This document shows positions 5,761-42,471 of a stretch of 64,000 bases of DNA, piece after piece. Each line of letters opens with the position of its first letter. The first letter of the stretch is position 1. The stretch is from the NCBI GenBank assembly GCA_902521725.1, contig CABYTF010000001.1, positions 254,386 through 318,385 on the forward strand. Reading direction: 5' to 3'. Position numbers and translations under genes: made by a program. Origin of the DNA: an uncultured Gammaproteobacteria bacterium. GTDB lineage: Bacteria; Pseudomonadota; Gammaproteobacteria; GCA-002705445; GCA-002716945. Below the pieces are notes generated by a model. That model did no database searches. It was not told where the DNA came from and saw nothing but the letters and a program-made list of their open reading frames with translations.

Positions 5761-6477
5761 TTGTATTATTCTAACTTTGTAATGTTAATTCAGAATTCAA
5801 ATAAAATAATATTTATTCATGGATGGTTGTTTGGCTCTTATATTTGGAAAAACATTCAAGGGTGTTTTCCAAATGTCTCCTTTAGTGAACTGGTGTCTCT
5901 CCCTGGATATTACAAATCAAGTACACCTGATCACAGTCGTAAAGTCATTGATTCTATCCTCGTGTCTTCAAAAAAGGATGATACGATAATAGTTTATTCA
6001 TACACTGCTGCTAGAGTACTTTTGTCGAGTGAACTGAATAAGTGTGATGCTACTATTATACTTATTAATCCTTTTTTAAAACCAAAAAACAGCACAATAA
6101 CTATGCTGAGAGATAATCTGGTCGAAGATTTTGATAGCACTATCAAGAAATTTATTTTTGAGTGCGTGAAAGGAAACAATCTCGCTAAGAAAAATTTTAT
6201 GAAACTTAAAAATTTATTTTATACTAACTACATACCTGAAAAAGATTCCTTGATTGCAGAGCTTGATGAGATGGCTAACTTTGATTTATCGAAATTTAAA
6301 GTTAATTATAGAGAAAATCTTGTGATCTTGTTGTCGGACAGTGATGAAGTTTGTGATACCAGAATTATGAATACACTCAAACATCATAAGATGAAGATAG
6401 TTACTTTGAAAAATTCACCACATTTCCCTTTTTTTGACTTCAAAGAGATCTGTGAGACTATTGAACTATTAGAATAA
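5761..6477 (+). CDS. alpha/beta-hydrolase, probable pimeloyl-ACP methyl ester esterase (BioH/BioG-like)
   Basis: 238 aa; IFIHGW oxyanion-hole region; immediately upstream of bioC. Nucleophile elbow is VYSYTA rather than GxSxG. True start may be the ATG at 5782. Confidence 0.5.
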   Translation: MYYSNFVMLIQNSNKIIFIHGWLFGSYIWKNIQGCFPNVSFSELVSLPGYYKSSTPDHSRKVIDSILVSSKKDDTIIVYSYTAARVLLSSELNKCDATIILINPFLKPKNSTITMLRDNLVEDFDSTIKKFIFECVKGNNLAKKNFMKLKNLFYTNYIPEKDSLIAELDEMANFDLSKFKVNYRENLVILLSDSDEVCDTRIMNTLKHHKMKIVTLKNSPHFPFFDFKEICETIELLE

Positions 6478-6482
6478 AAATC

Positions 6483-7286
6483 ATGAATCCATTTTCAAAT
6501 AAAGCCAGTTCGTATGATAAGCATTCATTCATACAAAAGGAGGTAAATAACAGGTTACTTAGTAGGCTAGATTTAATTAAACATGATAAGTTAAATGTTT
6601 TAGAAATCGGTTCAGGAACAGGGTATTTATCTCAGGATCTCCAACAAAAACACCCACATGTAAATATCATCTCTATGGATTTATCATATGAGATGGCACT
6701 TATTCATAAAAACAAAAACGATAATGCAAAATGCGTCGTAGGCAATGCTGAGAATCCGCCATTTCAGCTCTCAACATTCGATACGCTTTTATCAAGCCTC
6801 ACGCTTCATTGGTGTAACATTGATCCTAACTTATTTGATAAATTTTCAAATTTACTCACCCCTAATGGCTTACTCTTATTTTCAGTTGCTGGACCAGATA
6901 CATTTAAAGAATTTAAAAAATGTCCTCCTGACATTTATGAAAAACTTAGGTTCAATGAATATTTAGATATGCATCACTATGGCGATTTCTTACTTCAGTC
7001 TGACTTTAGAGATCCCGTAATGGATAATGAGCAAATCACTATTGAGTTTTCCAAATTTAGCCAGCTGCTTGATTCAATTCGTTTAACTGGCACTAATATC
7101 ACGGATTCCAAAAATAGGGCACATATTTCTAAAGCTGAATACAACATCATAAAATCTTGCTTATATAATGACGCATCAAGCTCATTTGAATTAACTTATG
7201 ATATAATTTTCGGGTATGCTCTGAAACCTGCGAAAACCCTTGATAAATCAGGTAAATTGATAAAGATCAAAGAGATAAAAAAATAG
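6483..7286 (+). CDS. bioC: malonyl-ACP O-methyltransferase
   Basis: 267 aa class I SAM MTase; N-terminal SYDKHSFIQKEV (BioC A-x-x-Y-D / Q motif) and VLEIGSGTG motif I; the BioC-typical short architecture. Confidence 0.72.
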   Translation: MNPFSNKASSYDKHSFIQKEVNNRLLSRLDLIKHDKLNVLEIGSGTGYLSQDLQQKHPHVNIISMDLSYEMALIHKNKNDNAKCVVGNAENPPFQLSTFDTLLSSLTLHWCNIDPNLFDKFSNLLTPNGLLLFSVAGPDTFKEFKKCPPDIYEKLRFNEYLDMHHYGDFLLQSDFRDPVMDNEQITIEFSKFSQLLDSIRLTGTNITDSKNRAHISKAEYNIIKSCLYNDASSSFELTYDIIFGYALKPAKTLDKSGKLIKIKEIKK

Positions 7287-7375
7287 TAAATTAGAAATTC
7301 CATAAGTACTAATATTTTGCTATTATTGAACTCGGAAAGGATGTTATTAAAGGACTAATGACCATATTTTAGGGA

Positions 7376-8182
7376 ATGAAAATGAATAGACTATCAGCAT
7401 TATTAATCGCATCGTTGGCTTCTGTCTCAAGCTTCGCGGATTGGGAAGTCAATATGCCAAGAGGTGTCTCACCTACCGCCAACGCTGCCTATGACCTGCA
7501 TATGTTAATTTTTTATATTACTGTTGTGATAGGTGTAATCGTATTTGGGGTAATGTTCTATTCAATATTCCATCACAGAAAGTCTAAAGGAGCTAAACCA
7601 GCTTCGTTTCATGAGAGCACTACGGTCGAAGTTATATGGACAGTAATACCATTTGTAATCTTAGTTGGCATGGCTATACCTGCCACAAAAACACTTATAA
7701 TGATGGAAGATACAAGAGATTCTGAGATAACACTCAAAGTAACTGGCTATCAATGGATGTGGAAATATGATTATGTTGAAGATAATGTCTCATTTTTCAG
7801 TAAGCTTGATAATAAAAGTAATGAAGCGAGACAACTTGGTTCTAAGATAGATGTTAAAAAAGTTGATAACTATCTTCTTAATGTTGACAATGAAGTTGTT
7901 CTTCCAACAGACACCAAAGTCAGAATACTATTGACCGCAAGTGATGTGATTCATGCTTGGTGGGTTCCAGAAATCACTGGAAAGAAAGATGCTATTCCTG
8001 GATACATCAATGAATTATGGGTAGATATTAAAAAGCCTGGTGTTTACCGAGGTCAGTGTACGGAATTATGTGGTAAGGATCATGGATTCATGCCAATAGT
8101 TGTTCGTGCAGTCCCTAAACAAGAATATGTAAAATGGGTTTCATTAAACCAAAAGAACCGAGTAGCAGACAAATCAGAATAA
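7376..8182 (+). CDS. coxB: cytochrome c oxidase subunit II (CuA)
   Basis: 268 aa; signal peptide plus 2 TM; CuA ligands HAWWVP...[12 protein letters not shown]. Confidence 0.93.
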
Positions 8183-8192
8183 GGAAATTAAT

Positions 8193-9770
8193 ATGAGCAC
8201 TAATATCGATCACATCAAAGAGGAACATCATCATCAGCCATCTGGTTTGATGAGGTGGATTACGACCACAAATCATAAAGACATAGGATCCCTATATCTA
8301 TGGTTCAGTTTACTTATGTTTTTTATTGGTGGATTTATGGCGCTAATTATTCGTGCAGAATTATTTCAACCGGGTCTTCAGCTTGTAGTTCCCGGCTTTT
8401 TCAATCAAATGACCACAATGCACGCTCTTATTATGATTTTTGGTGCACTTATGCCTGCTTTTGTAGGGCTAGCTAATTGGCAACTTCCGATGATGATTGG
8501 CGCCCCTGATATGGCACTTCCAAGACTCAATAACTGGAGTTTTTGGATATTACCTTTCGCTTTTACAATGCTACTGAGCACCTTATTTTTTGAAAGTGGT
8601 GGCCCAGCAGCAGGTTGGACATTATATCCCCCATTATCATTACAGGGCGGGAATTCTATGCCGTTTGTAATATTTTCGCTTCATTTATTAGGGGCCTCAT
8701 CAATTCTCGGTGCTATAAATGTCATAGCTACAATTCTTAATATGAGAGCGCCTGGCATGACTCTAATGAAGATGCCAATCTTTGTATGGACATGGCTTAT
8801 AACCGCATTTCTACTTATTGCCGCTATGCCCGTACTAGCTGGTGCCATTACCATGTTATTGACGGACAGATTTTATGGAACTAGTTTCTTCACAGCTGCC
8901 GGTGGTGGAGACCCTGTTTTATTCCAGCATATATTCTGGTTCTTTGGTCATCCTGAAGTTTACATTTTAATACTTCCTGCATTCGGTATTATATCGACCA
9001 TAATTCCTGCATTCTCTAGAAAAAAACTATTTGGATACGACTCTATGGTATATGCGACTGCTTCAATCGCTTTACTATCATTTATTGTTTGGGCACACCA
9101 CATGTTCACAGTGGGAATGCCACTTGCCGGTGAAATATTTTTTATGTTTACAACGATGCTGATAGCTGTACCCACAGGCGTAAAGGTTTTCAATTGGGTT
9201 GCAACGATGTGGAGAGGGTCAATGACTTTTGAGACACCCATGTTATTCTCACTAGCTTTCATTATTCTATTCACTATCGGAGGCTTCTCTGGGTTGATGC
9301 TTGCAATAACTCCAGCGGATTTCCAGTACCACGACACATACTTTGTAGTAGCACACTTCCACTACGTTCTCGTCCCTGGCGCAATATTTGCTGTTATAGC
9401 AGCAGTATATTACTGGCTTCCTAAATGGACGGGGAAAATGTACAACGAAACACTCGGGAAAGTTCATTTCTGGATGACAACAGTATTTGTAAACATTACC
9501 TTTTTCCCTATGCACTTCGTTGGATTAGCTGGTATGCCAAGAAGGATTCCTGATTACGCTGTTCAGTTTACAGACTTCAATATGATTGCATCTATTGGTG
9601 CATTTGGCTTTGGATTATCACAACTTCTTTTCGTGTACATACTATTTCAAACGCTTAGACAGCCTGTAACAGCAGCTGATAAGTCTTGGGAAGGCGCTGA
9701 GGGATTAGAATGGACTTTACCTTCTCCAGCACCATATCATTCATTTGATACACCACCTAAGGTTGACTAA
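8193..9770 (+). CDS. coxA: cytochrome c oxidase subunit I
   Basis: 525 aa; 12-TM haem-copper oxidase; GHPEVY and HHMF(T)VG motifs. Confidence 0.95.
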
Positions 9771-10306
9771 TGAAAAGCGTTAAATCAACTATTACAAAAC
9801 TCTCACTCGTAGTTGTCGCTATGTATGGTTTTTCTTACGCATTAGTGCCTATTTACGATACATTTTGCGAAATAACTGGTTTGAATGGCAAAACTAATGA
9901 GGTTGCTTACACAGGTAGTGATATTGAAAAAGAAAATAGATTTATAAAAATTAAATTTATCTCAAACGTCGCAAATTCAGCACCACTATATTTTGAGCCT
10001 GCGGTAACAGAAATGACTGTTCAAGTTGGAAAACCTTATAATACTCACTATGTTATGAAGAATAATTCAACTAAACAGCTACATACCACGGCTAGCCCAA
10101 GTGTAACCCCAGGTAAATTTGCAGAATATTTTAAAAAAATAGAATGTTTCTGTTTCAATCAACAAACAATTGATTCTGGTGAGATTAAAGATTTAGGGAT
10201 TCAATTTGTAGTAGATAACGATCTTCCGACTAATATAGGTGATATAGTGCTTTCGTACACTATGTTTGATATTACTAATAAAGTAGTAGAGGCAGATAAA
10301 TTGTGA
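9770..10306 (+). CDS. ctaG: cytochrome c oxidase assembly protein CtaG/Cox11
   Basis: 178 aa; N-terminal TM; CFCF copper-binding motif (KIECFCFNQQ); TAATG overlap with coxA. Confidence 0.88.
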   Translation: MKSVKSTITKLSLVVVAMYGFSYALVPIYDTFCEITGLNGKTNEVAYTGSDIEKENRFIKIKFISNVANSAPLYFEPAVTEMTVQVGKPYNTHYVMKNNSTKQLHTTASPSVTPGKFAEYFKKIECFCFNQQTIDSGEIKDLGIQFVVDNDLPTNIGDIVLSYTMFDITNKVVEADKL

Positions 10307-11160
10307 GTGGCTCATCGTATTACGTTCCTCACGAAACCAAGTGGCCATTTTTAGCAACGATAGCATTGATGATTATGTTCATTGGCCTTGCCAATTATAT
10401 GAACGATGAGTCCACACTGACACTTACATTAACAGGTCTGGGTCTATTGTTGATAGTTATATATGGTTGGTTTTCTTATGTTGTCAGGGAGAGTGAAGGT
10501 GGATTATATGATGATCAAGTAGATATGTCATTTAGGTGGGGTATGGCATGGTTTATTTTCTCTGAGGTTATGTTTTTTGCGGCATTTTTTGGGGCTCTTT
10601 ACTATGCAAGAGAGCTATCATTGCCATGGTTAGCGGGCGATGGTTCTGGAGTGAGTACCAATCAGGAGTTATGGCCTTCGTTCGAAAATGTGTGGCCTTC
10701 CAATGGTCCTGCCAATTATGGCGGTGATTTTGTGGTAATGAAAGCAGCAGGTATACCCGCGCTTAATACAATTATTTTACTCATTAGTGGTTTGACAGTC
10801 ACATGGGCTCACCACGGTCTCAAAGAGGGCAAAAGGAATCAGCTTATTCTAGGATTAATCGCGACTGTTCTTTTAGGTTTTATATTTGTAGGTTTTCAAG
10901 CCTATGAATATTCTCATGCTTATAATGATCTTAATTTAAAAATGTCATCAGGGATTTATGGTTCGACATTTTATATGTTAACCGGATTTCATGGTTTCCA
11001 TGTCACACTAGGTGCAATAATGTTGACTGTTATTTTATTCAGATGTATTCGAGGACATTTTAGTAATGAGAATCATTTTGGATTTGAAGCCGTTGCCTGG
11101 TATTGGCATTTTGTCGATGTTGTTTGGCTTGGATTGTTTGTGTTTGTCTACTGGCTGTGA
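10303..11160 (+). CDS. coxC: cytochrome c oxidase subunit III
   Basis: 285 aa; GTG start overlapping the ctaG stop; YYVPHETKWP N-terminus and 7-TM CoxIII profile. Confidence 0.9.
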   Translation: MSGSSYYVPHETKWPFLATIALMIMFIGLANYMNDESTLTLTLTGLGLLLIVIYGWFSYVVRESEGGLYDDQVDMSFRWGMAWFIFSEVMFFAAFFGALYYARELSLPWLAGDGSGVSTNQELWPSFENVWPSNGPANYGGDFVVMKAAGIPALNTIILLISGLTVTWAHHGLKEGKRNQLILGLIATVLLGFIFVGFQAYEYSHAYNDLNLKMSSGIYGSTFYMLTGFHGFHVTLGAIMLTVILFRCIRGHFSNENHFGFEAVAWYWHFVDVVWLGLFVFVYWL

Positions 11161-11166
11161 TTAATA

Positions 11167-11367
11167 TCAAAAATTATTCGGTTTAATCATATCCATATAA
11201 TATCCCACTATTAACAATGCAAAGAGTAATACAGACAAAACTATCCTTGTTTTCAGTGAAGCAAGTCCTCTGTTAGAGCTTGATTTATCTTTTAGAATGT
11301 ATACAAAACCCATAACAAGATTATATATTATTAAGATTAGAAGAGTTATAATCGCGAACTTAAACAT
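11167..11367 (-). CDS. small two-TM membrane protein (DUF2909-like 'twin transmembrane helix' protein)
   Basis: 66 aa with two hydrophobic helices and a basic loop; this kind of small ORF is recurrently found between coxC and surf1 in gammaproteobacteria, but here it lies on the opposite strand. Confidence 0.4.
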   Translation of the reverse strand: MFKFAIITLLILIIYNLVMGFVYILKDKSSSNRGLASLKTRIVLSVLLFALLIVGYYMDMIKPNNF

Positions 11368-11387: not shown

Positions 11388-12068
11388 ATGAAAAATATAC
11401 TTAAAAACTTGATCCTATTTTTTCTAATTTTAACTTGTGTATACTTAGGTTTTTGGCAGTTAGATCGAGCAGATCAAAAACTCAGTATTCAAACTGATTA
11501 TCAAAATCAATTATCAAAAGAATATTTAGATTTAAAAGAAGTACAAAAAAATCCTTTAAGATATACTAAAATTATGGCTAAAGGCACTTTTCTAGAACCA
11601 TATTTTCTTCTTGATAATATTGTTCATAATAAAAAAGCCGGATATCTTGTGATGTCACCATTTCTGGTTGAAGATAAGATCATTATTGTAAATAGAGGCT
11701 GGGTTGACAACTTTTCACGACAAAAATTTCCAGAGATTTTAACACCTGAATCTTACCAACAAATAAAGGGATACATTAAATATCCAATGAGACTCTTGGA
11801 GTTAAGCGGAGTTAATATGACTAATGAAAAACCATTTATAATACAGAATCTAAATATTAATGAAATATCTTCAATTCTAAAAAAAGACATCTATCCGTTT
11901 TATTTAAACTTGGAGATAAACAGCAATCATTCATACATACATATAAAAGAGAAGACTGAAAATAAATATCTCACACATTACATGTATGCAGGTCAATGGT
12001 TTTTGTTTGCTTTAATTGGTATCATTTTTTTAATACTTTTGAATAGGAAAAAAAATGTCAAAACTTAA
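11388..12068 (+). CDS. surf1: SURF1/Shy1 family cytochrome oxidase assembly protein
   Basis: 226 aa; N-terminal TM followed by GFWQLDRADQK (SURF1 signature); C-terminal TM. Confidence 0.85.
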   Translation: MKNILKNLILFFLILTCVYLGFWQLDRADQKLSIQTDYQNQLSKEYLDLKEVQKNPLRYTKIMAKGTFLEPYFLLDNIVHNKKAGYLVMSPFLVEDKIIIVNRGWVDNFSRQKFPEILTPESYQQIKGYIKYPMRLLELSGVNMTNEKPFIIQNLNINEISSILKKDIYPFYLNLEINSNHSYIHIKEKTENKYLTHYMYAGQWFLFALIGIIFLILLNRKKNVKT

Positions 12069-12561
12069 GTTCCTATTGATAGTATTTGTATTTGTACTTC
12101 CCTTTATATTTGCAAAATACTTCTTCGATAATGACGCGACTAGCACTAGAGGTACGACTAATCATGGATCTTTTTTAGTTGATGAGGTAAATATAACTAG
12201 CTTGGCTGATAATGATCATTGGATTATTCTTCAAGTGATTGATGATAAGTGCGATACAAGCTGCCAAGACAACATGCATATGTTAAGACAGATCAACACA
12301 GCTCTTGGTAAAGATATGGGAAGAGTAAAACGGTATCTACTCCATAAAAACACTAATGAGAATACAGTTTATTTAGATAACTATCCAAAAGTTATTGTTT
12401 TAGATAGATCAGAAACACTCTATAATAGTCTCACTAAAATGGATGAGAGAATATTTATTGCTGATCCTTTTGGTAAAATCATCCTAGGTTACGAAAATGA
12501 TTTTATTGCAAAAGGTTTACTCAAGGACATGAAGAAGCTACTTAAATTCTCAAAGAGGTAG
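12055..12561 (+). CDS. membrane-anchored thioredoxin-fold protein, Sco/SenC-like (divergent)
   Basis: 168 aa; N-terminal TM; CDTSC (CxxxC) aligns by eye with the Sco CxxxCP region, and the C-terminal IFIADPFGKII with the Sco FYLVxPDGKV strand; the conserved Cu-ligand His is not evident. Confidence 0.45.
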   Translation: MSKLKFLLIVFVFVLPFIFAKYFFDNDATSTRGTTNHGSFLVDEVNITSLADNDHWIILQVIDDKCDTSCQDNMHMLRQINTALGKDMGRVKRYLLHKNTNENTVYLDNYPKVIVLDRSETLYNSLTKMDERIFIADPFGKIILGYENDFIAKGLLKDMKKLLKFSKR

Positions 12562-12564
12562 ATT

Positions 12565-13569
12565 ATGGATGATTCAATGATATCGAAATTAAGTTTTCTA
12601 GGCGCAGCCTTTACACTTTTTGTGATATCGCTCGGGGCTTGGGTAAGATTGACTGATGCTGGACTCGGATGTCCAGATTGGCCAGGCTGCTATGGTCTTC
12701 TGACTACGCCTGATACAGCTGATGAACTTGCGAAAGCCAAAGAGAATTATCCAGGCGCTAATATTGACATAGGAAAAGCATGGAGAGAAATGCTGCACAG
12801 ATATGTTGCTGGTATTCTTGGCTTATATGTTTTTTTCATCACCTATATATCAATTAAATTCTCAAAACAGAACTATACGCTTCCAGTATTGATATCAGTT
12901 CTAATAATAATACAGGCAATAATGGGAATGCTCACTGTAACAATGCTTGTCAAACCAACTATAGTTACAACACATCTATTTTTCGGAATGTTAACAGCAA
13001 CATTGCTTTTTATTAATGGTCTCAAGTATGCTGATATAGATGTTTCACAAAATAAGTTGCCTAAATATGCGCTTGTGACGGTGTTTGTGACATGGTCTCT
13101 GTTGATTATACAAATTCTGCTGGGTGGATGGACAAGCACTAATTATGCCTCACTGGCATGTACTGACTTTCCAAAATGTCTTGACCAGTGGTATCCAAAA
13201 GAGATGGTTTTTGATGGGGCGTTTAATTTAATAAACCTACCTGATATAAATTACGAAGGTGGTTTTTTAGCTTACGGCGCTAAAGTAGCTGTTCATTATG
13301 TTCACAGAATTACGGCATTAATATTGACCCTGTTCTTCCTCTTGACTATATATATAATTTTTAAACTTGAAGAACATAGTTTCTTAAAGAAAGTCATAGG
13401 CGTAAGTATAATCTTTTTTGTGCTTCAAGTAGCTTTGGGTATATCTAATGTAGTGTATAGCCTCCCGCTTAACATTGCTGTCTGGCATACCATGAATGCA
13501 GCCATTTTAATGGCATTAATCTCGGGCGCTTTGTATTATTCTTTGATATCATTTACAAAAACACAGTAA
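12565..13569 (+). CDS. ctaA: haem A synthase (COX15/CtaA)
   Basis: 334 aa; 8-TM; paired His-containing helices; position upstream of ctaB. Confidence 0.85.
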   Translation: MDDSMISKLSFLGAAFTLFVISLGAWVRLTDAGLGCPDWPGCYGLLTTPDTADELAKAKENYPGANIDIGKAWREMLHRYVAGILGLYVFFITYISIKFSKQNYTLPVLISVLIIIQAIMGMLTVTMLVKPTIVTTHLFFGMLTATLLFINGLKYADIDVSQNKLPKYALVTVFVTWSLLIIQILLGGWTSTNYASLACTDFPKCLDQWYPKEMVFDGAFNLINLPDINYEGGFLAYGAKVAVHYVHRITALILTLFFLLTIYIIFKLEEHSFLKKVIGVSIIFFVLQVALGISNVVYSLPLNIAVWHTMNAAILMALISGALYYSLISFTKTQ

Positions 13570-14460
13570 ATGAACAGCACATCATCAACACCTAATCCAA
13601 TTATATTTGACCTAATTGCTCTGACCAAACCGAGGGTAAATTTTCTTATTATCTTCACAGCCATTGTTGGTATGCTTTTAGCTCAAGATTTTACTTTGAA
13701 CTATAGTCTCATGATTTACGCTAGTATAGGAATCTATCTTGCTGCATCAGCAGCTGCCGTGATAAACCAAATAGTGGATCAGAAGATTGACGCCATAATG
13801 GATAGGACCAAAAGTAGACCGCTCATCAAGGGAAATGTTACTTCGAAGCATGCCATCTATTTTTCAATAGTTATATCTCTTATTTCTACTTATATTCTTT
13901 ATGAATACGTAAACACAATCACCACTGTATTGACTTTATTTTCAATAATAGTTTATTCAATAATCTATTCTGTGTATCTAAAAAATCTTACCTCGCAAAA
14001 TATTGTAATAGGAGGTATAGCCGGAGCTATGCCACCCCTACTTGGATGGACGGCTATCACTAATGGAGTTAGTGAACTTCCTCTACTATTATTTCTCATT
14101 ATATTTTTATGGACACCCCCACATTTCTGGGCGTTAGCAGTCTACAAAAAAGATGATTATAGCAAAGCGAATATCCCTATGTTACCAGTCACTCATGGTG
14201 ATGATTTTACAAGACTGCATATTTTTCTTTATTCAATTTTATTGTTTTGTATTACTTTGTTTCCATATTTACTTGGACTCGTATCTTATATTTATCTAGC
14301 ATCAGTTATTTTACTCGGTGGGAAGTTCATATACGATTCATATGATCTTTATATAACTAAGAACATTAGAAAGGCTCTATTGCTATTTAAGTACTCTATT
14401 ACTTACCTTGCAATGTTGTTTGCAGCTTTGTTAGCCGATCACTATATTTTGATGCTCTAG
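13570..14460 (+). CDS. ctaB: protohaem IX farnesyltransferase (haem O synthase)
   Basis: 296 aa UbiA-family prenyltransferase; start abuts the ctaA stop. Confidence 0.92.
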   Translation: MNSTSSTPNPIIFDLIALTKPRVNFLIIFTAIVGMLLAQDFTLNYSLMIYASIGIYLAASAAAVINQIVDQKIDAIMDRTKSRPLIKGNVTSKHAIYFSIVISLISTYILYEYVNTITTVLTLFSIIVYSIIYSVYLKNLTSQNIVIGGIAGAMPPLLGWTAITNGVSELPLLLFLIIFLWTPPHFWALAVYKKDDYSKANIPMLPVTHGDDFTRLHIFLYSILLFCITLFPYLLGLVSYIYLASVILLGGKFIYDSYDLYITKNIRKALLLFKYSITYLAMLFAALLADHYILML

Positions 14461-21412: not shown

Positions 21413-22615
21413 ATGACTAATCTGATCATGCCACATGGCTCGAATGAACTGAATACACTCTACATTGAAGATGAAATGGCAAGATCATCAATGTTATCTG
21501 CATCAGCCGAGATGCGTAGTCTTGAAATAAATTCAGCTGCAGCAGCTAATGCAGTCATGATGGCTGCTGGTTACTTCAATCCGCTGACAGGTTATATGAA
21601 TAAGGAGGAGACGCTGAAAGTATCAAAAGAGATGCTGACATTAGATGATATATTCTGGCCGGTTCCGATCGTTAATATTACAACAGACGCAAACTCACTT
21701 GACTATACGCACGGAGAGGAGATTGCTCTAAGAGACCCGAATGTTGAAGGCAATCCAGTCATTGCGATTCAAAGAATAGATAATGTAGAAAAGCTAAGTG
21801 ACGACGATATTGAAACCATTGTTAAAAATGTTTTTGCAACAACTGATGTAAATCATCCCGGTGTAAAAAATTTTAAAGATCAGGGTAAATATATTATTTC
21901 TGGATCAATTGAAGTCTTAAACTATAGTTATTTTCCGCATGATTTTCCAAATACATTTGCCACAGCTCCAGATATACGAAAGATGCTAACTGAGGCTGGC
22001 TGGTCTAAAACTGTTGCATTTCAAACCAGAAATCCAATGCACAGAGCGCACGAAGAACTTTGCAAAATGGCTTATGAAAGATTAGAAGCTGATGGAGTTC
22101 TGATTCATATGCTCTTGGGCAAACTCAAAGAAGGTGATATTCCAGGAGATGTAAGAGATGCTGCGATAAGGAAAATGGTAGAAATATATTTCGAGAAGAA
22201 TACTGCAATCATCTCTGGATTTGGATTCGACATGATGTACGCAGGTCCTCGTGAAGCTCTACTCCACGCAGTATTTAGGCAAAATGCAGGATGTACACAT
22301 TTGATAGTTGGTCGAGATCATGCTGGCGTTGGTGATTACTATGAACCATTTGAGGCGCAAGAAATATTTGATTTGGATGTTGTAAAAGATTCACTTAAAA
22401 TCGAAATTTTTAAAGCTGATCACACAGCCTACTCTAAAAAACTAAACAAAGTGGTAATGATGAGGGATGCCGAGGATCACTCCAAAGATGATTTTGTTTT
22501 ACTATCTGGGACAAAAGTGAGGGAAATGCTTGCTGCAGGTCAAGATTTACCACCAGAATTTGCTAGAAAAGAAGTAGCCAAGATATTGATGACTTACTAT
22601 CAGGAGAAAAGCTGA
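21413..22615 (+). CDS. sat: sulfate adenylyltransferase (dissimilatory-type ATP sulfurylase)
   Basis: 400 aa; QTRNPMHRAHEEL and GRDHAGVG motifs of homo-oligomeric ATP sulfurylase. Confidence 0.92.
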   Translation: MTNLIMPHGSNELNTLYIEDEMARSSMLSASAEMRSLEINSAAAANAVMMAAGYFNPLTGYMNKEETLKVSKEMLTLDDIFWPVPIVNITTDANSLDYTHGEEIALRDPNVEGNPVIAIQRIDNVEKLSDDDIETIVKNVFATTDVNHPGVKNFKDQGKYIISGSIEVLNYSYFPHDFPNTFATAPDIRKMLTEAGWSKTVAFQTRNPMHRAHEELCKMAYERLEADGVLIHMLLGKLKEGDIPGDVRDAAIRKMVEIYFEKNTAIISGFGFDMMYAGPREALLHAVFRQNAGCTHLIVGRDHAGVGDYYEPFEAQEIFDLDVVKDSLKIEIFKADHTAYSKKLNKVVMMRDAEDHSKDDFVLLSGTKVREMLAAGQDLPPEFARKEVAKILMTYYQEKS

Positions 22616-23572: not shown

Positions 23573-24064
23573 ATGTCAACTTTTGTATATATGACCAGAT
23601 GTGATGGTTGTGGAATGTGTGTAGATATCTGTCCATCAGATATAATGCATATCGATAAAACATTGAGGCGTGCGGTTAACATAGAACCAAACATGTGTTG
23701 GGAGTGTTACTCTTGCGTGAAAGCATGTGACCAAAATGCTATCGATGCTCGTGGTTACGCTGATTTCTCACCACTGGGCCATAGCGTAAGGGCACTCAGA
23801 GAGGAAGAAAAAGGAACTATTTCTTGGAAAATTAAGTTCAGAAACGGCACAGAAAAAAATTTCTGTTCACCAATTACTACTAAACCTTGGGGAGAGTACA
23901 TTCCTGAGTTAGCAACAGAGCCATCACCAGCAAAAGATGTTTATGACGGCGAGCTACTGTACAATGAACCAAAATATCTCAAAACAGGTGAAGTGCAAAC
24001 TGCTAATGATGGTCTACCTGAAATGACAAAAATCGGTAAGCTAAAACAGGGAGTATATTACTAA
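23573..24064 (+). CDS. aprB: adenylylsulfate reductase beta subunit (2x[4Fe-4S])
   Basis: 163 aa; CDGCGMCVDICP and CWECYSCVKAC clusters with the AprB C-terminal tail. Confidence 0.9.
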   Translation: MSTFVYMTRCDGCGMCVDICPSDIMHIDKTLRRAVNIEPNMCWECYSCVKACDQNAIDARGYADFSPLGHSVRALREEEKGTISWKIKFRNGTEKNFCSPITTKPWGEYIPELATEPSPAKDVYDGELLYNEPKYLKTGEVQTANDGLPEMTKIGKLKQGVYY

Positions 24065-25917
24065 TGGCTAGAAAAACACATTATGAAGATTGCGATATTC
24101 TTGTTGTAGGCGGAGGTATGGCCGGTACAGGTGCTGCGTTTGAATCAAGATATTGGGGTAAAGACATGAAAATCATTGTGGCCGAGAAAGCTAACATTGA
24201 TAGAAGTGGTGCTGTGGCTCAAGGTCTGTATGCTATCAACTGTTACATGGGCATGCAGTGGGGTGAGAATGCTCCTGAAGATCATGTGAGATATGCGCGT
24301 AATGACCTGATGGGAATGGTCCGAGAAGATCTTGCGTATGATATGGCTCGACATGTTGACTCTGCGGTTCACATGTTTGAAGAGTGGGGTCTGCCATTGA
24401 TGCGAAATAAAGAAACAGGTCGCTATCAAAGAGAGGGCAAATGGCAAATAATGATCCACGGCGAGAGCTACAAGCCTATAGTTGCTGAAGCAGCCAAGAA
24501 ATCAGCTGATAAGATTTACAACAGAGTAATGATTACTCACTTGCTGATGGATGAAGCCAAAGAAAACAGGATAGGTGGTGCATGTGGGTTCAACATGCGT
24601 ACAGGTGAGTTCCATGTATTCCGCGCTAAAGCTGTTGTATGTGCTGCAGGTGGAGCCTCTCATATATTCAAACCTAGATCAGTTGGAGAAGGTATGGGTC
24701 GTACTTGGTATGCACCTTGGAGTAATGGCTCTGCTTATGCATTACCGATTGCTGTTGGTGCAAAGATGACCCAAATGGAAAATAGAATCGTATTGACACG
24801 TTTTAAAGATGGTTATGGTCCTGTTGGAGCTTATTTCCTCCATCTTAAAACTTATACACAGAATGCAGCAGGTGAAAACTATGAGAAAAAGTGGTACGAC
24901 AACACAAAAGCAATTGTCGGCGAGTACCTTGATCATGTTCCAACACCAACCTGTCTGAGAAACCATGCTTTCATTCAAGAGACAATACACGGAGGCGGAC
25001 CTATCCATATGGTAACTATGGAAGCATTCCAAGATCCTCACCTTGAGGAAATCGGTTGGGAAAACTTTCTAGGTATGACTGTTGGACAAGCAGTGGTTTG
25101 GGCTGCTCAAGACATTGATCCTAAATATCAAAACCCGGAACTAACAACATCAGAACCATATGTAATGGGTTCTCATGCAACATGTTCTGGAGCTTGGTGT
25201 AGTGGTCCAGAGGACTTATCTCCACCGGAGTATTTCTGGGGATACAATCGTATGATGACTATTGATGGATTATTTGCTGCTGGTGATGCCGCAGGTGGAA
25301 CCGCACACGCATTCTCCTCAGGCTCATTTACTGAGGGTAGATTATGCGCCAAAGCAGCGGTCAAATACATTAAAGATCAAAAAGCTGTTGGAATCAGAGT
25401 TTCCGATAGCCAAATCGAAAAATACAAAGAGGAAGTTTATAAACCTCTTGAAAACTATACCGTTGGACGTAACGAGATAACAGCAGGTACAGTATCACCA
25501 AGTTATCTACTTCCAATTCAGGGTCTTCAGCGTCTGCAGAAGATTATGGATGACTACGCGGGAGGTATAGGAACAAACTATATGACTAACGGTAATATGC
25601 TCAAAAGAGGTCTTCAGTTACTCGATACACTTACTGAAGATTTAGAGAAAATTGGTGCAGAGGATTATCATCAGTTAATGAGAGCATGGGAGCTTAAACA
25701 TAGAACTTTAGTCTCTCAATGTGTTTGTGAACATACATTATTCCGTGAAGAAACACGTTGGCCTGGTTATTACTATCGTGGTGATTTTTTAAAGCTTGAT
25801 GACGATAACTGGCATTGTCTAACAGTCTCAAGAAGAGATCCTGAAACAGGTAAATTCACTTGTGAAAAAGCTCCTCTATATCATATCGTTGACGAAGAGA
25901 CAGAAAAAGTTTCTTGA
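24064..25917 (+). CDS. aprA: adenylylsulfate reductase alpha subunit (FAD)
   Basis: 617 aa; VVGGGMAGTGAA FAD fold; fumarate-reductase-like flavoprotein architecture; start overlaps the aprB stop. Confidence 0.93.
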   Translation: MARKTHYEDCDILVVGGGMAGTGAAFESRYWGKDMKIIVAEKANIDRSGAVAQGLYAINCYMGMQWGENAPEDHVRYARNDLMGMVREDLAYDMARHVDSAVHMFEEWGLPLMRNKETGRYQREGKWQIMIHGESYKPIVAEAAKKSADKIYNRVMITHLLMDEAKENRIGGACGFNMRTGEFHVFRAKAVVCAAGGASHIFKPRSVGEGMGRTWYAPWSNGSAYALPIAVGAKMTQMENRIVLTRFKDGYGPVGAYFLHLKTYTQNAAGENYEKKWYDNTKAIVGEYLDHVPTPTCLRNHAFIQETIHGGGPIHMVTMEAFQDPHLEEIGWENFLGMTVGQAVVWAAQDIDPKYQNPELTTSEPYVMGSHATCSGAWCSGPEDLSPPEYFWGYNRMMTIDGLFAAGDAAGGTAHAFSSGSFTEGRLCAKAAVKYIKDQKAVGIRVSDSQIEKYKEEVYKPLENYTVGRNEITAGTVSPSYLLPIQGLQRLQKIMDDYAGGIGTNYMTNGNMLKRGLQLLDTLTEDLEKIGAEDYHQLMRAWELKHRTLVSQCVCEHTLFREETRWPGYYYRGDFLKLDDDNWHCLTVSRRDPETGKFTCEKAPLYHIVDEETEKVS

Positions 25918-40719: not shown

Positions 40720-42471
40720 TTAATTTTTTACTAGTTTGAGTACTTTTAAGAAGTCCTCGCTGCCCATGAAGCCTACAATCCTTGCATCAATAATTTCACT
40801 ACCATCTGCATTAAAGAAAAATAAAGCAGGTGGCCCAAAGACCATCATATTTTGTAAATATTTCGAGTGTTCTTCGGTCGTTTCTGTGATATCAAATTTG
40901 ATAAGTTTTAGTTCGTTCAATTTCTCGCTGACTCTCTCGTCACTGAATGTATATTTTTCTAATTCTTTGCATGCCACGCACCAATCTGCATATAAATCAA
41001 CCATTACAGGCTCATTACTTTTATTTATTTCTTCGAATAATCTCTTTGTCGTTTTTACTGTTATGAATGTAATATTCTGCTCTTTTTGTATAAAGCTTGT
41101 TATCGGATCATAATAATTATTATTTATGATTCCATATGTTTGTAACCCAATATAAAAAAACGATAGAGACGACAGCGTCGCAATGATGATCTTAGATGAT
41201 AAATTATTTAATAACTTGAACGATTTAAATAATACTAATATTAGGAGGGCTGCAGAAATAGTCCATAAATAGGCTGCTGTCTCTAAGGACAAGATTCTCT
41301 CAAGCAACCAGACAGATACTATAATAAATAGAATGCCGAAAAAGTAATTTACAAGCTCAAGGTAGGGACCTATTTTTGATATCAATTTTGTTGTTGTTGA
41401 ACCCAAAGCTATCAAGGGTGTACCCATTCCAATACCTAGAAAAAAAAGTGCCAAACCTCCAACTAGAATATTCCCCGTACTCGCAATGTATATCAGCGCA
41501 CCAATTAATGGTGCAGTTACACAGGGACCCACTATAAGTGCAGATAATACACCCATAGTCGCAACATCTTTAATATCACCAGACTTTTGCTTATTACTTA
41601 TTTTTGTAGCTATATTTTGTATTGATTTAGGCATCTGAATACTAAAGAATTTGAACATGGCTAACGCAAACATAAAAAACAAAAAGGATAAAAAGCTAAT
41701 TACGTAAGGATTTTGTAAACTAGCCTGTATATTTGTTCCTGATGTTGCAACAATAATTCCCGCAACAGCATAAGTCAGTGACATACTCAAAACATAAACT
41801 ATTGAGAGCGTTAGAGATTTTTTTTGAGATACATTTCCACGTCCAGCAATTATCCCGGTGAGAATCGGGACCATGGGTAAGACACAAGGAGTAAATGCTA
41901 ACAATAATCCAGCTAAGTAAAAAATGAAGGTGTTATAAATTAGAGAATTAATATTGAGTGATTCACTCATTGCAGTTTGACTATCAAATATTGATGTCTT
42001 TTGGAGACTAGATGTCGTTAACTTTTTTTTTACCGTGATTGTTTTAAAAATTGGTGGATAGCACAATCCTGCATCTGCACAACCTTGATATTTTATTTTA
42101 AGATCAAGATACTCAGAGAGGTTATTTTCCAAATAAACGTCTGCGCTCGTTGAGAAATAATAGATATCAACTTCACCAAAGAATTCATCTGTTTTTTTCT
42201 CTCCATCAGGCATCTCGACTTTTTGGATTAGGTTATCCTTATCAAGTGATTCAAATTCAAACATTCCCATATATAAATAATAACCTGGATGAATTTTCCA
42301 ATTTATTTTTATATGCTTGTCATTAACAACCTCATGGGACATTACAAAAGCTTGGTCAGGTGATAGAAACTCAGACTGTGAAATCGGCAGATCACTGGCG
42401 TGAATTTTGTCTCCCGTTAATAAGCATAAAAAAAATAGTGAATTAAAAAATATTGTTTTAATCAATTTCAT
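40720..42471 (-). CDS. dsbD: thiol:disulfide interchange protein DsbD
   Basis: 583 aa; N-terminal periplasmic domain, 8-TM core with conserved Cys, C-terminal thioredoxin domain WCVAC. Confidence 0.9.
   Translation of the reverse strand: MKLIKTIFFNSLFFLCLLTGDKIHASDLPISQSEFLSPDQAFVMSHEVVNDKHIKINWKIHPGYYLYMGMFEFESLDKDNLIQKVEMPDGEKKTDEFFGEVDIYYFSTSADVYLENNLSEYLDLKIKYQGCADAGLCYPPIFKTITVKKKLTTSSLQKTSIFDSQTAMSESLNINSLIYNTFIFYLAGLLLAFTPCVLPMVPILTGIIAGRGNVSQKKSLTLSIVYVLSMSLTYAVAGIIVATSGTNIQASLQNPYVISFLSFLFFMFALAMFKFFSIQMPKSIQNIATKISNKQKSGDIKDVATMGVLSALIVGPCVTAPLIGALIYIASTGNILVGGLALFFLGIGMGTPLIALGSTTTKLISKIGPYLELVNYFFGILFIIVSVWLLERILSLETAAYLWTISAALLILVLFKSFKLLNNLSSKIIIATLSSLSFFYIGLQTYGIINNNYYDPITSFIQKEQNITFITVKTTKRLFEEINKSNEPVMVDLYADWCVACKELEKYTFSDERVSEKLNELKLIKFDITETTEEHSKYLQNMMVFGPPALFFFNADGSEIIDARIVGFMGSEDFLKVLKLVKN

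Follow-up and report, generated by a model that had tools for sequence, protein, structure and literature searches.

A Sco-related thioredoxin-fold protein encoded between surf1 and ctaA in a marine gammaproteobacterial oxidase cluster as a candidate thiol-disulfide oxidoreductase

The CuA and CuB sites of cytochrome oxidases can be assembled only if cysteines are kept reduced in the oxidising periplasm. To our knowledge the reductant for these cysteines is known only in a few models, namely TlpA in Bradyrhizobium, Sco in Thermus and COA6 in mitochondria. The present work deals with a small gene, here called gene X, which is located directly after surf1 in the oxidase cluster of an uncultured, AT-rich marine gammaproteobacterium (34% GC). 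The stretch of DNA analysed, referred to as the window, comprises 64,000 nucleotides (assembly GCA_902521725.1, contig CABYTF010000001.1, positions 254,386 to 318,385), and all coordinates for this gene and its neighbours are those of the window. Gene X (12055..12561, plus strand) encodes a membrane-anchored protein of 168 amino acids which is homologous to the Sco copper chaperones, has kept their cysteine pair and has lost the loop carrying their copper-binding histidine. Judged from its sequence it may be a periplasmic, membrane-tethered thiol-disulfide oxidoreductase in the biogenesis of aa3/caa3 oxidases, a proposal to which we give an even chance.

The closest described chaperones are those of the Sco/SenC/PrrC group (PF02630), with structures for B. 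japonicum ScoI (4wbj) and for the proteins of S. lividans (4bpy), T. thermophilus (2k6v) and B. subtilis (YpmQ, 1xzo). They share with X the N-terminal membrane anchor, the thioredoxin fold, a CxxxC motif at the N-terminus of helix 1, a (D/N/G)PxG hairpin, the C-terminal helix, the location in cox operons and a detectable homology. X differs from them by the absence of the Sco loop, of the histidine ligand, of the proline following CxxxC and of the DPxRD motif, and its family has conserved motifs of its own (TTNxG, R78-Q79 and a C-terminal SxIG). It is the histidine in the loop which gives the thioredoxin scaffold of Sco its metal binding (reviewed in PMC6696091). According to the same review the Sco protein of Thermus reduces the cysteines of COX II instead of delivering copper, which is brought in by PCuAC, and TlpA of Bradyrhizobium reduces ScoI and CoxB (PMC6696091). 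TlpA (1jfu) is a membrane-anchored periplasmic thioredoxin; it has a CxxC motif and a cis-proline loop, is unmatched by the X family profile at E ≤ 10 and is not encoded beside surf1. The lack of a CxxC active site and of a cis-proline loop also separates X from TlpA/ResA/CcmG-type oxidoreductases in general. Another SCO relative, HCC2 of Arabidopsis, is a eukaryotic protein not known to be linked to Surf1 and, unlike X, has lost the copper-binding motif including the cysteines. Its functions diverge from those of the COX-essential HCC1, and it provides a precedent for a SCO paralogue with a job other than that of the canonical copper chaperone (PMC3971200).

Family membership, fold and kinship with Sco

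Gene X proved to be a real, conserved protein-coding gene. Its ATG start overlaps the stop of surf1 by 14 nucleotides and it ends 3 nucleotides short of ctaA. Comparison with four relatives of 77–96% identity (L001–L004) yielded ratios of nonsynonymous to synonymous substitution rates (dN/dS) of 0.10–0.14, showing purifying selection. A protein identical to X is encoded in the same gene context on public contigs, for instance in the single-cell assembly GCA_902591735.1.

X is a new, divergent member of a family which is already catalogued but uncharacterised. Residues 3–167 align end to end with positions 5–178 of the 180 positions of the NCBIfam profile NF058629 ("PA_0111/PP_0108 family redox-active disulfide protein") with an E value of 9e-19 and 68 bits, a score which falls below the equivalog cut-off of 230 bits. 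In addition, the protein identical to X and all close homologues carry a precomputed Pfam assignment to PF26971 (TM-like_Thioredoxin-like_C), which for the identical protein is unmarked. The PA_0111/PP_0108 family, which corresponds to PF26971 together with PF26978 (TM-like_N), has the same CxxxC and the same place between surf1 and ctaA or ctaB, whereas X is a distant member from an AT-rich marine clade, with 168 amino acids as compared to about 180–220 and without the terminal IG. PF26971 is newer than the Pfam copy used for the searches with the single X sequence, in which X alone returned noise only (ArlS_N, E 0.079); nor did a phmmer search of the PDB with X alone give anything significant (autotaxin, E about 0.2). 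All 143 members of a 143-sequence family alignment match NF058629. When 1.84 billion cluster representatives were searched with a profile, 2,843 proteins were retrieved at E ≤ 1e-3, of which 1,148 reached E ≤ 1e-10, and tblastn located the family in replicons of Vibrio, Pseudoalteromonas, Legionella and Amphritea; its membership in Pseudomonas is taken from the NCBIfam name.

A model of the protein was obtained with AlphaFold2. With the 143 diverse sequences as input the model reached a predicted local distance difference test score (pLDDT) of 91.7 and a predicted template modelling score of 0.81, as compared to a pLDDT of 51 with 14 close homologues. It consists of an N-terminal helix (residues 3–25), strand 56–62, helix 68–90, strand 91–97, helix 105–109, strand 113–116, helix 120–127, strands 133–136 and 141–146 and helix 152–165. 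In this model X is a thioredoxin fold (residues 56–165, 12220..12549; like all features of X on the plus strand), in which the cysteine pair caps helix 1 (68–90). A Foldseek search with the model gave matches at E about 1e-4.

The relationship to Sco became apparent when a hidden Markov model (HMM) of the family was compared to all PDB sequences. Thirteen distinct Sco sequences, the weakest of them with an E value of 0.011, were found, and only Sco was significant. The best matches were B. japonicum ScoI (7e-12), B. anthracis Sco (1e-6) and human SCO2 (2e-6), followed by human SCO1 (4e-5) and B. subtilis YpmQ (1e-3), while no TlpA or thioredoxin chain of the PDB appeared at E ≤ 10. When the family was compared by hhalign to a canonical SenC encoded in a related locus, the probability was 96.5% and the E value 8.6e-10. 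X itself has no match to PF02630 (SCO1/SenC) even at E ≤ 10, but 80 of the 143 family members match this profile individually at E ≤ 0.01, the best with 2.1e-12. Since profile matches in the PDB, hhalign and the PF02630 matches of members all agree, the family is regarded as an offshoot of Sco and not of TlpA. This kinship is visible only via the family profile, the structure model or relatives of X; precomputed PF02630 matches of the relatives are flagged "weak", and some members have been labelled "Cu insertion factor (SCO1/SenC/PrrC family)" or "SCO family protein" by the Joint Genome Institute (JGI) or NCBI.

In the alignment of the family HMM to the PDB sequences the CxxxC of X comes to lie over the CxxxC of Sco (HCPDVC in ScoI) and its DPxG over the DRDG/GPDG/NPNG hairpin of Sco. 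A different register, which MAFFT and hhalign gave with one SenC sequence and in which DHSG lies over DPLG and the C-terminal hairpin is shifted, was rejected. The alignment to ScoI was preferred because of its high posterior probabilities and of the 18-residue spacing from the hairpin glycine to the conserved aspartate of the last helix. An original prediction, made by eye from the letters of the window alone, had described a membrane-anchored open reading frame of 168 amino acids between surf1 and ctaA, had aligned it with Sco and had assigned it the Sco/thioredoxin fold. The position of the open reading frame was exact, the register chosen by eye agrees with that of the profile at both CxxxC and DPxG, and the fold is borne out by the model, by the PDB matches and by hhalign; a similarity to PF02630 was recovered for the relatives and not for X itself.

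Towards its N-terminus X has a membrane helix (residues 3–25, 12061..12129), which is predicted with pLDDT values of 94–96, coincides with a hydrophobic stretch in the sequence and contains a nearly invariant proline (P16). It is preceded by K3 and K5 and followed by D25, D27, D43 and E44, so that according to the positive-inside rule the N-terminus would be inside and the domain outside, in the periplasm. Between anchor and thioredoxin core is a TTNHG motif (residues 34–38, 12154..12168) with N36 in 133 and G38 in 142 of the 143 sequences; this TTN(H/Y)G motif is specific to the family and not a feature of Sco. The turn of the beta-hairpin, D137-P-F-G140 (12463..12474), the equivalent of DRDG/GPDG/NPNG in Sco, is conserved at D137 (141/143), P138 (141/143) and G140 (136/143). 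Further conserved features specific to the family are W56, R78-Q79, ALGK, R90, Y146 and D158, and across the family the C-terminus conforms to LKDLKxLLKxSxIG. A lipoprotein was considered and rejected, as there is no lipobox cysteine. A link by gene fusion was also rejected, since no long fusion proteins were present among the top 150 cluster representatives.

The cysteine pair and the lost histidine loop

The two cysteines of X, C66 and C70 in the sequence C-D-T-S-C (12250..12264), are located at the N-terminus of helix 1 and align with the CxxxC of Sco. The pair is found in 308 of 309 full-length relatives, in 192 of 193 relatives retrieved later, which are mostly distant (most about 25–40% identical), and in 142 of the 143 sequences of the family alignment. 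Its conservation, on which the original prediction had depended, is thus nearly complete. The residue following the motif, a proline in Sco, is glutamine in X and Q, K, R, E or N in the relatives (n=308), with proline in none. A single member among the 309 of full length, P0136, lacks cysteine altogether and has LxxxL in place of CxxxC. This type of X occurs on two independent assemblies (L023, 487–1056, and L024, 689–1258), in both still between surf1 and ctaA.

The situation is different for the histidine. In the X family the second cysteine and the hairpin are a median of 68 residues apart, as compared to 94 in a canonical Sco. With the loop shortened by about 26 residues, the segment which bears the histidine in Sco is deleted in X. 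The residue aligned with the histidine ligand of ScoI (4wbj) is M129 (12439..12441), and no histidine is present at this position of X under either of the two alignment registers. The column of M129 lies in a gapped segment and is variable across the family (K16, D15, T14, Q12 and others), although the methionine is invariant in 14 sequences of the close clade (63–98% identity). Any histidine in the corresponding 12-residue segment is found in only 28 of 299 relatives, and no histidine or methionine column is conserved anywhere in the family alignment. The claim that the histidine had been replaced, with DER in place of HQS, therefore stands as far as the loss is concerned, while the aligned residue is the methionine of KMDER, one position off, and the whole loop has been shortened. 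As regards structure and conservation the original prediction is supported; its functional part, a thiol-disulfide role in place of copper delivery with the CuA cysteines as a possible target, is a hypothesis.

The oxidase gene cluster and its relatives

The order of the genes in the window is coxB-coxA-ctaG-coxC-DUF2909-surf1-X-ctaA-ctaB. All of them except the DUF2909 gene are on the plus strand, and they were assigned by Pfam matches, which are given in brackets. The cluster starts with coxB for subunit II (7376..8182; COX2, COX2_TM), which has the CuA cysteines but no cytochrome c domain and is a candidate substrate of X. It is followed by coxA for subunit I (8193..9770; COX1), by ctaG/cox11 for the CuB chaperone with a CFCF motif, an alternative candidate substrate (9770..10306; CtaG_Cox11), and by coxC for subunit III (10303..11160; COX3). 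On the minus strand a small membrane protein is encoded at 11167..11367 (DUF2909, also supported by synteny). This DUF2909 gene is present between coxC and surf1 in nearly every X-containing cluster in which the region is covered and represents another uncharacterised component. Then come surf1 (11388..12068; SURF1), which by its overlap is translationally coupled with X, and, after X, ctaA for heme A synthase (12565..13569; COX15-CtaA), the translation of which shows two cysteine pairs in periplasmic loops, GCPDWPGC and CTDFPKC, and ctaB/cyoE for heme O synthase (13570..14460; UbiA).

Twenty-seven other loci were examined, 15 from genomes, 11 from assemblies and one from an annotated Pseudoalteromonas record (L027). 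In all 27 of them X directly follows surf1 within the cox cluster (in L001–L022 by tblastn), the junction ranging from a gap of 4 nucleotides to an overlap of 17. The gene after X is ctaA in most loci and ctaB in L016, L019, L020 and L022. X accompanies both aa3-type clusters, where CoxB has no cytochrome c domain (the window and L021), and caa3-type clusters, where it has one (L016, L017, L019 and L022). Two adjacent tblastn pieces each were obtained for ctaA in L002 (7511–8510) and for X in L011 (7001–7502), which are probably frameshifts or errors in assembling the metagenome-assembled genomes.

No canonical Sco is encoded within the 64-kb window. In L019/L020 and in Pseudoalteromonas piscicida (L027), a canonical Sco with CPDVCP, DPxRD and VDHS is located at the end of the operon of X. 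As canonical Sco shares the operon in some relatives, X is regarded as a paralogue with its own job and not as a degenerate replacement of Sco. In L027 (NZ_CP099945.1) X is found at 6977–7468 as a "hypothetical protein" with CNKQC and a DKKG hairpin, and the canonical "SCO family protein" at 9370–9963 with CPDVCP, DPNRD and VDHS. This cultured species, with X and Sco in one operon, lends itself well to experiments; the record carries the label of a 31-kb linear "plasmid" but resembles a chromosomal fragment.

Elsewhere in the window a complete dsbD is encoded on the minus strand (40720..42471), with the Pfam domains DsbD_N, DsbD_TM and Thioredoxin and the motif WCVACK, and hence a periplasmic electron supply exists. 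ATP sulfurylase, AprB and AprA at 21413–22615, 23573–24064 and 24064–25917 (plus strand) represent an adenosine 5'-phosphosulfate (APS) reductase pathway. An open reading frame of 238 amino acids without Pfam match (5761–6477, plus strand), just upstream of a BioC-like methyltransferase (6483–7286), probably encodes a divergent BioH-like esterase; in the more distant loci L021 and L022 its place is taken by an Abhydrolase_1 gene.

A proposed thiol-disulfide exchange and competing explanations

X has descended from the Sco/SenC branch of the thioredoxin-fold superfamily, losing the copper-binding histidine loop and keeping the CxxxC of helix 1. If it is a dedicated oxidoreductase of oxidase biogenesis, its cysteine pair would cycle between dithiol and disulfide, and X would keep copper-ligand cysteines reduced and ready for metallation. 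X could act on CoxB at its CuA cysteines or on the cysteines of CtaG/Cox11 and Sco, and the loop pairs of CtaA have also been named as clients. Electrons might be supplied to X by DsbD as a possible source, and X, being made together with Surf1 via the overlapping genes, may work physically beside it. This proposal is consistent with the conserved CxxxC and with the lack of a third metal ligand, as seen from the variable histidine column and the loop shorter by about 26 residues. Because a canonical Sco is present in the same operon in L019/L020 and L027, X is presumably not the copper chaperone of the cluster. The name "redox-active disulfide protein", at which the NCBIfam curators arrived independently, is counted in favour of a redox role. 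This name is itself a prediction and already holds essentially what the original prediction had proposed, so that the idea is not new to the databases. The accompanying statement that the protein is usually annotated only as hypothetical applies to the records of GenBank and of the Prokaryotic Genome Annotation Pipeline for the window lineage and for Pseudoalteromonas, but not more widely, as PF26971 and NF058629 already cover the family.

A number of observations weigh against such an oxidoreductase. The motif of the family is CxxxC throughout and not the classical CxxC redox motif, and for the binding of Cu(I) two cysteines can be enough. Typical thiol-disulfide oxidoreductases (thioredoxin, TlpA, ResA, CcmG, DsbA) hold their substrates by means of a cis-proline loop. 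No such loop was found before strand b3 of X, where the columns 127–132 preceding 133–136 are variable or gapped and contain no conserved proline. The gene order points to Surf1, i.e., to the module of heme a and subunit I, and not to that of CuA and subunit II. As the cysteine-less P0136 persists in its position, a role independent of the cysteines can suffice in one lineage. According to a paper of 2026 no experimental data exist for PA0111 (PMC13128677), and the literature found on PA0111, PP_0108, SO_4612, PF26971 and NF058629 consisted of transcriptome tables only, with no functional study among it.

A more far-reaching version of the proposal is rather unlikely. In it X would fill, in beta- and gammaproteobacteria, the place of a missing TlpA equivalent, as a Sco-derived, histidine-less CxxxC reductase which is made with and docks to Surf1 and reduces the CuA cysteines of CoxB and/or the cysteines of Cox11 where subunit I receives heme a, thereby coupling the copper and the heme a branches of assembly. 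In a still bolder variant X would, in the marine clade, double as a Cys2Met Cu(I) donor replacing Sco, in view of the invariant M129 and of the window of 64 kb without Sco.

The same two features also speak for X as a two-cysteine Cu(I) chaperone, which we consider unlikely. A simplified Sco of this kind would hold Cu(I) between C66 and C70, perhaps with the help of M129 in the clade of the window, and would pass it to CoxB for CuA or to CtaG/CoxA for CuB, in parallel to or upstream of canonical Sco. The homology to Sco, the exact conservation of the metal-ligand cysteines, the SCO-family labels given to some members by JGI and NCBI and the capability of two thiolates to bind Cu(I) would fit. 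This has to be set against the loss of the Sco loop and of its histidine, the very residue said to confer metal binding (PMC6696091), and against the absence of a family-wide histidine or methionine column, M129 being variable outside the clade. Furthermore, the proline of CxxxCP is never present, and other members have a canonical Sco alongside X in one operon.

Also doubtful is a role of X without catalysis, as a partner or scaffold for Surf1 in the module of heme a and subunit I, with the cysteine pair being either dispensable or a structural disulfide formed in the oxidising periplasm. It would account well for the position of X immediately after surf1 in 27 of 27 loci, with reading frames usually overlapping or abutting while the gene downstream may be ctaA or ctaB. 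No other proteins of the cluster evolve as fast as X and Surf1, and the divergence of the two runs in parallel; in L005, for example, identities are 58% for Surf1 and 71% for X as compared to 96% for CoxA. Besides the cysteines there are conserved features (TTNxG, W56, R78-Q79, R90, Y146 and LKDLKxLLKxSxIG at the C-terminus) which hint at surfaces for interaction, and the member without cysteines persists in the same position. On the other hand, a cysteine pair which 308 of 309 members keep exactly where the fold has its redox/metal position is conserved far beyond what would be expected of a dispensable feature, and a disulfide over one helical turn at the N-cap is a classic reactive arrangement and not a typical stabilising one.

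That X would instead form or proof-read the two cysteine pairs in the periplasmic loops of CtaA appears quite improbable. Although ctaA directly follows X in the window and in most loci, and the CtaA of the window does carry GCPDWPGC and CTDFPKC, the clusters of L016, L019, L020 and L022 have ctaB after X and no ctaA. The cysteine-less P0136 adjoins a CtaA which still carries GCPDWPGC, and disulfides of this kind would need no more than the general DsbA/DsbB system. The idea of X as an antioxidant enzyme which protects the oxidase, similar to a peroxiredoxin or glutathione peroxidase, can hardly be entertained and was rejected, since the peroxidatic PxxxTxxC motif is absent, with no conserved threonine at -3 (where P, D, N or S are found) or proline at -7 from C66. 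The preference of the sequence profiles for Sco amounts to many orders of magnitude, and weak AhpC-TSA matches were obtained with only 19 of the 143 members.

Thiol-disulfide exchange in oxidase biogenesis is therefore kept as the preferred explanation for X. For the most part the analysis confirms recent database curation, and the gain lies in a sharpened hypothesis rather than in a discovery. This hypothesis is testable and relevant to many bacteria, yet it will not surprise the specialist. The family is found in the cox operons of Pseudomonas, Vibrio, Pseudoalteromonas, Legionella and of abundant uncultured marine gammaproteobacteria, with about 2,800 cluster representatives. If X should be the reductant of the oxidase cysteines, the assembly pathway would be completed for a large part of the Proteobacteria, and a metallochaperone scaffold would have reverted to thiol chemistry through the loss of one loop.

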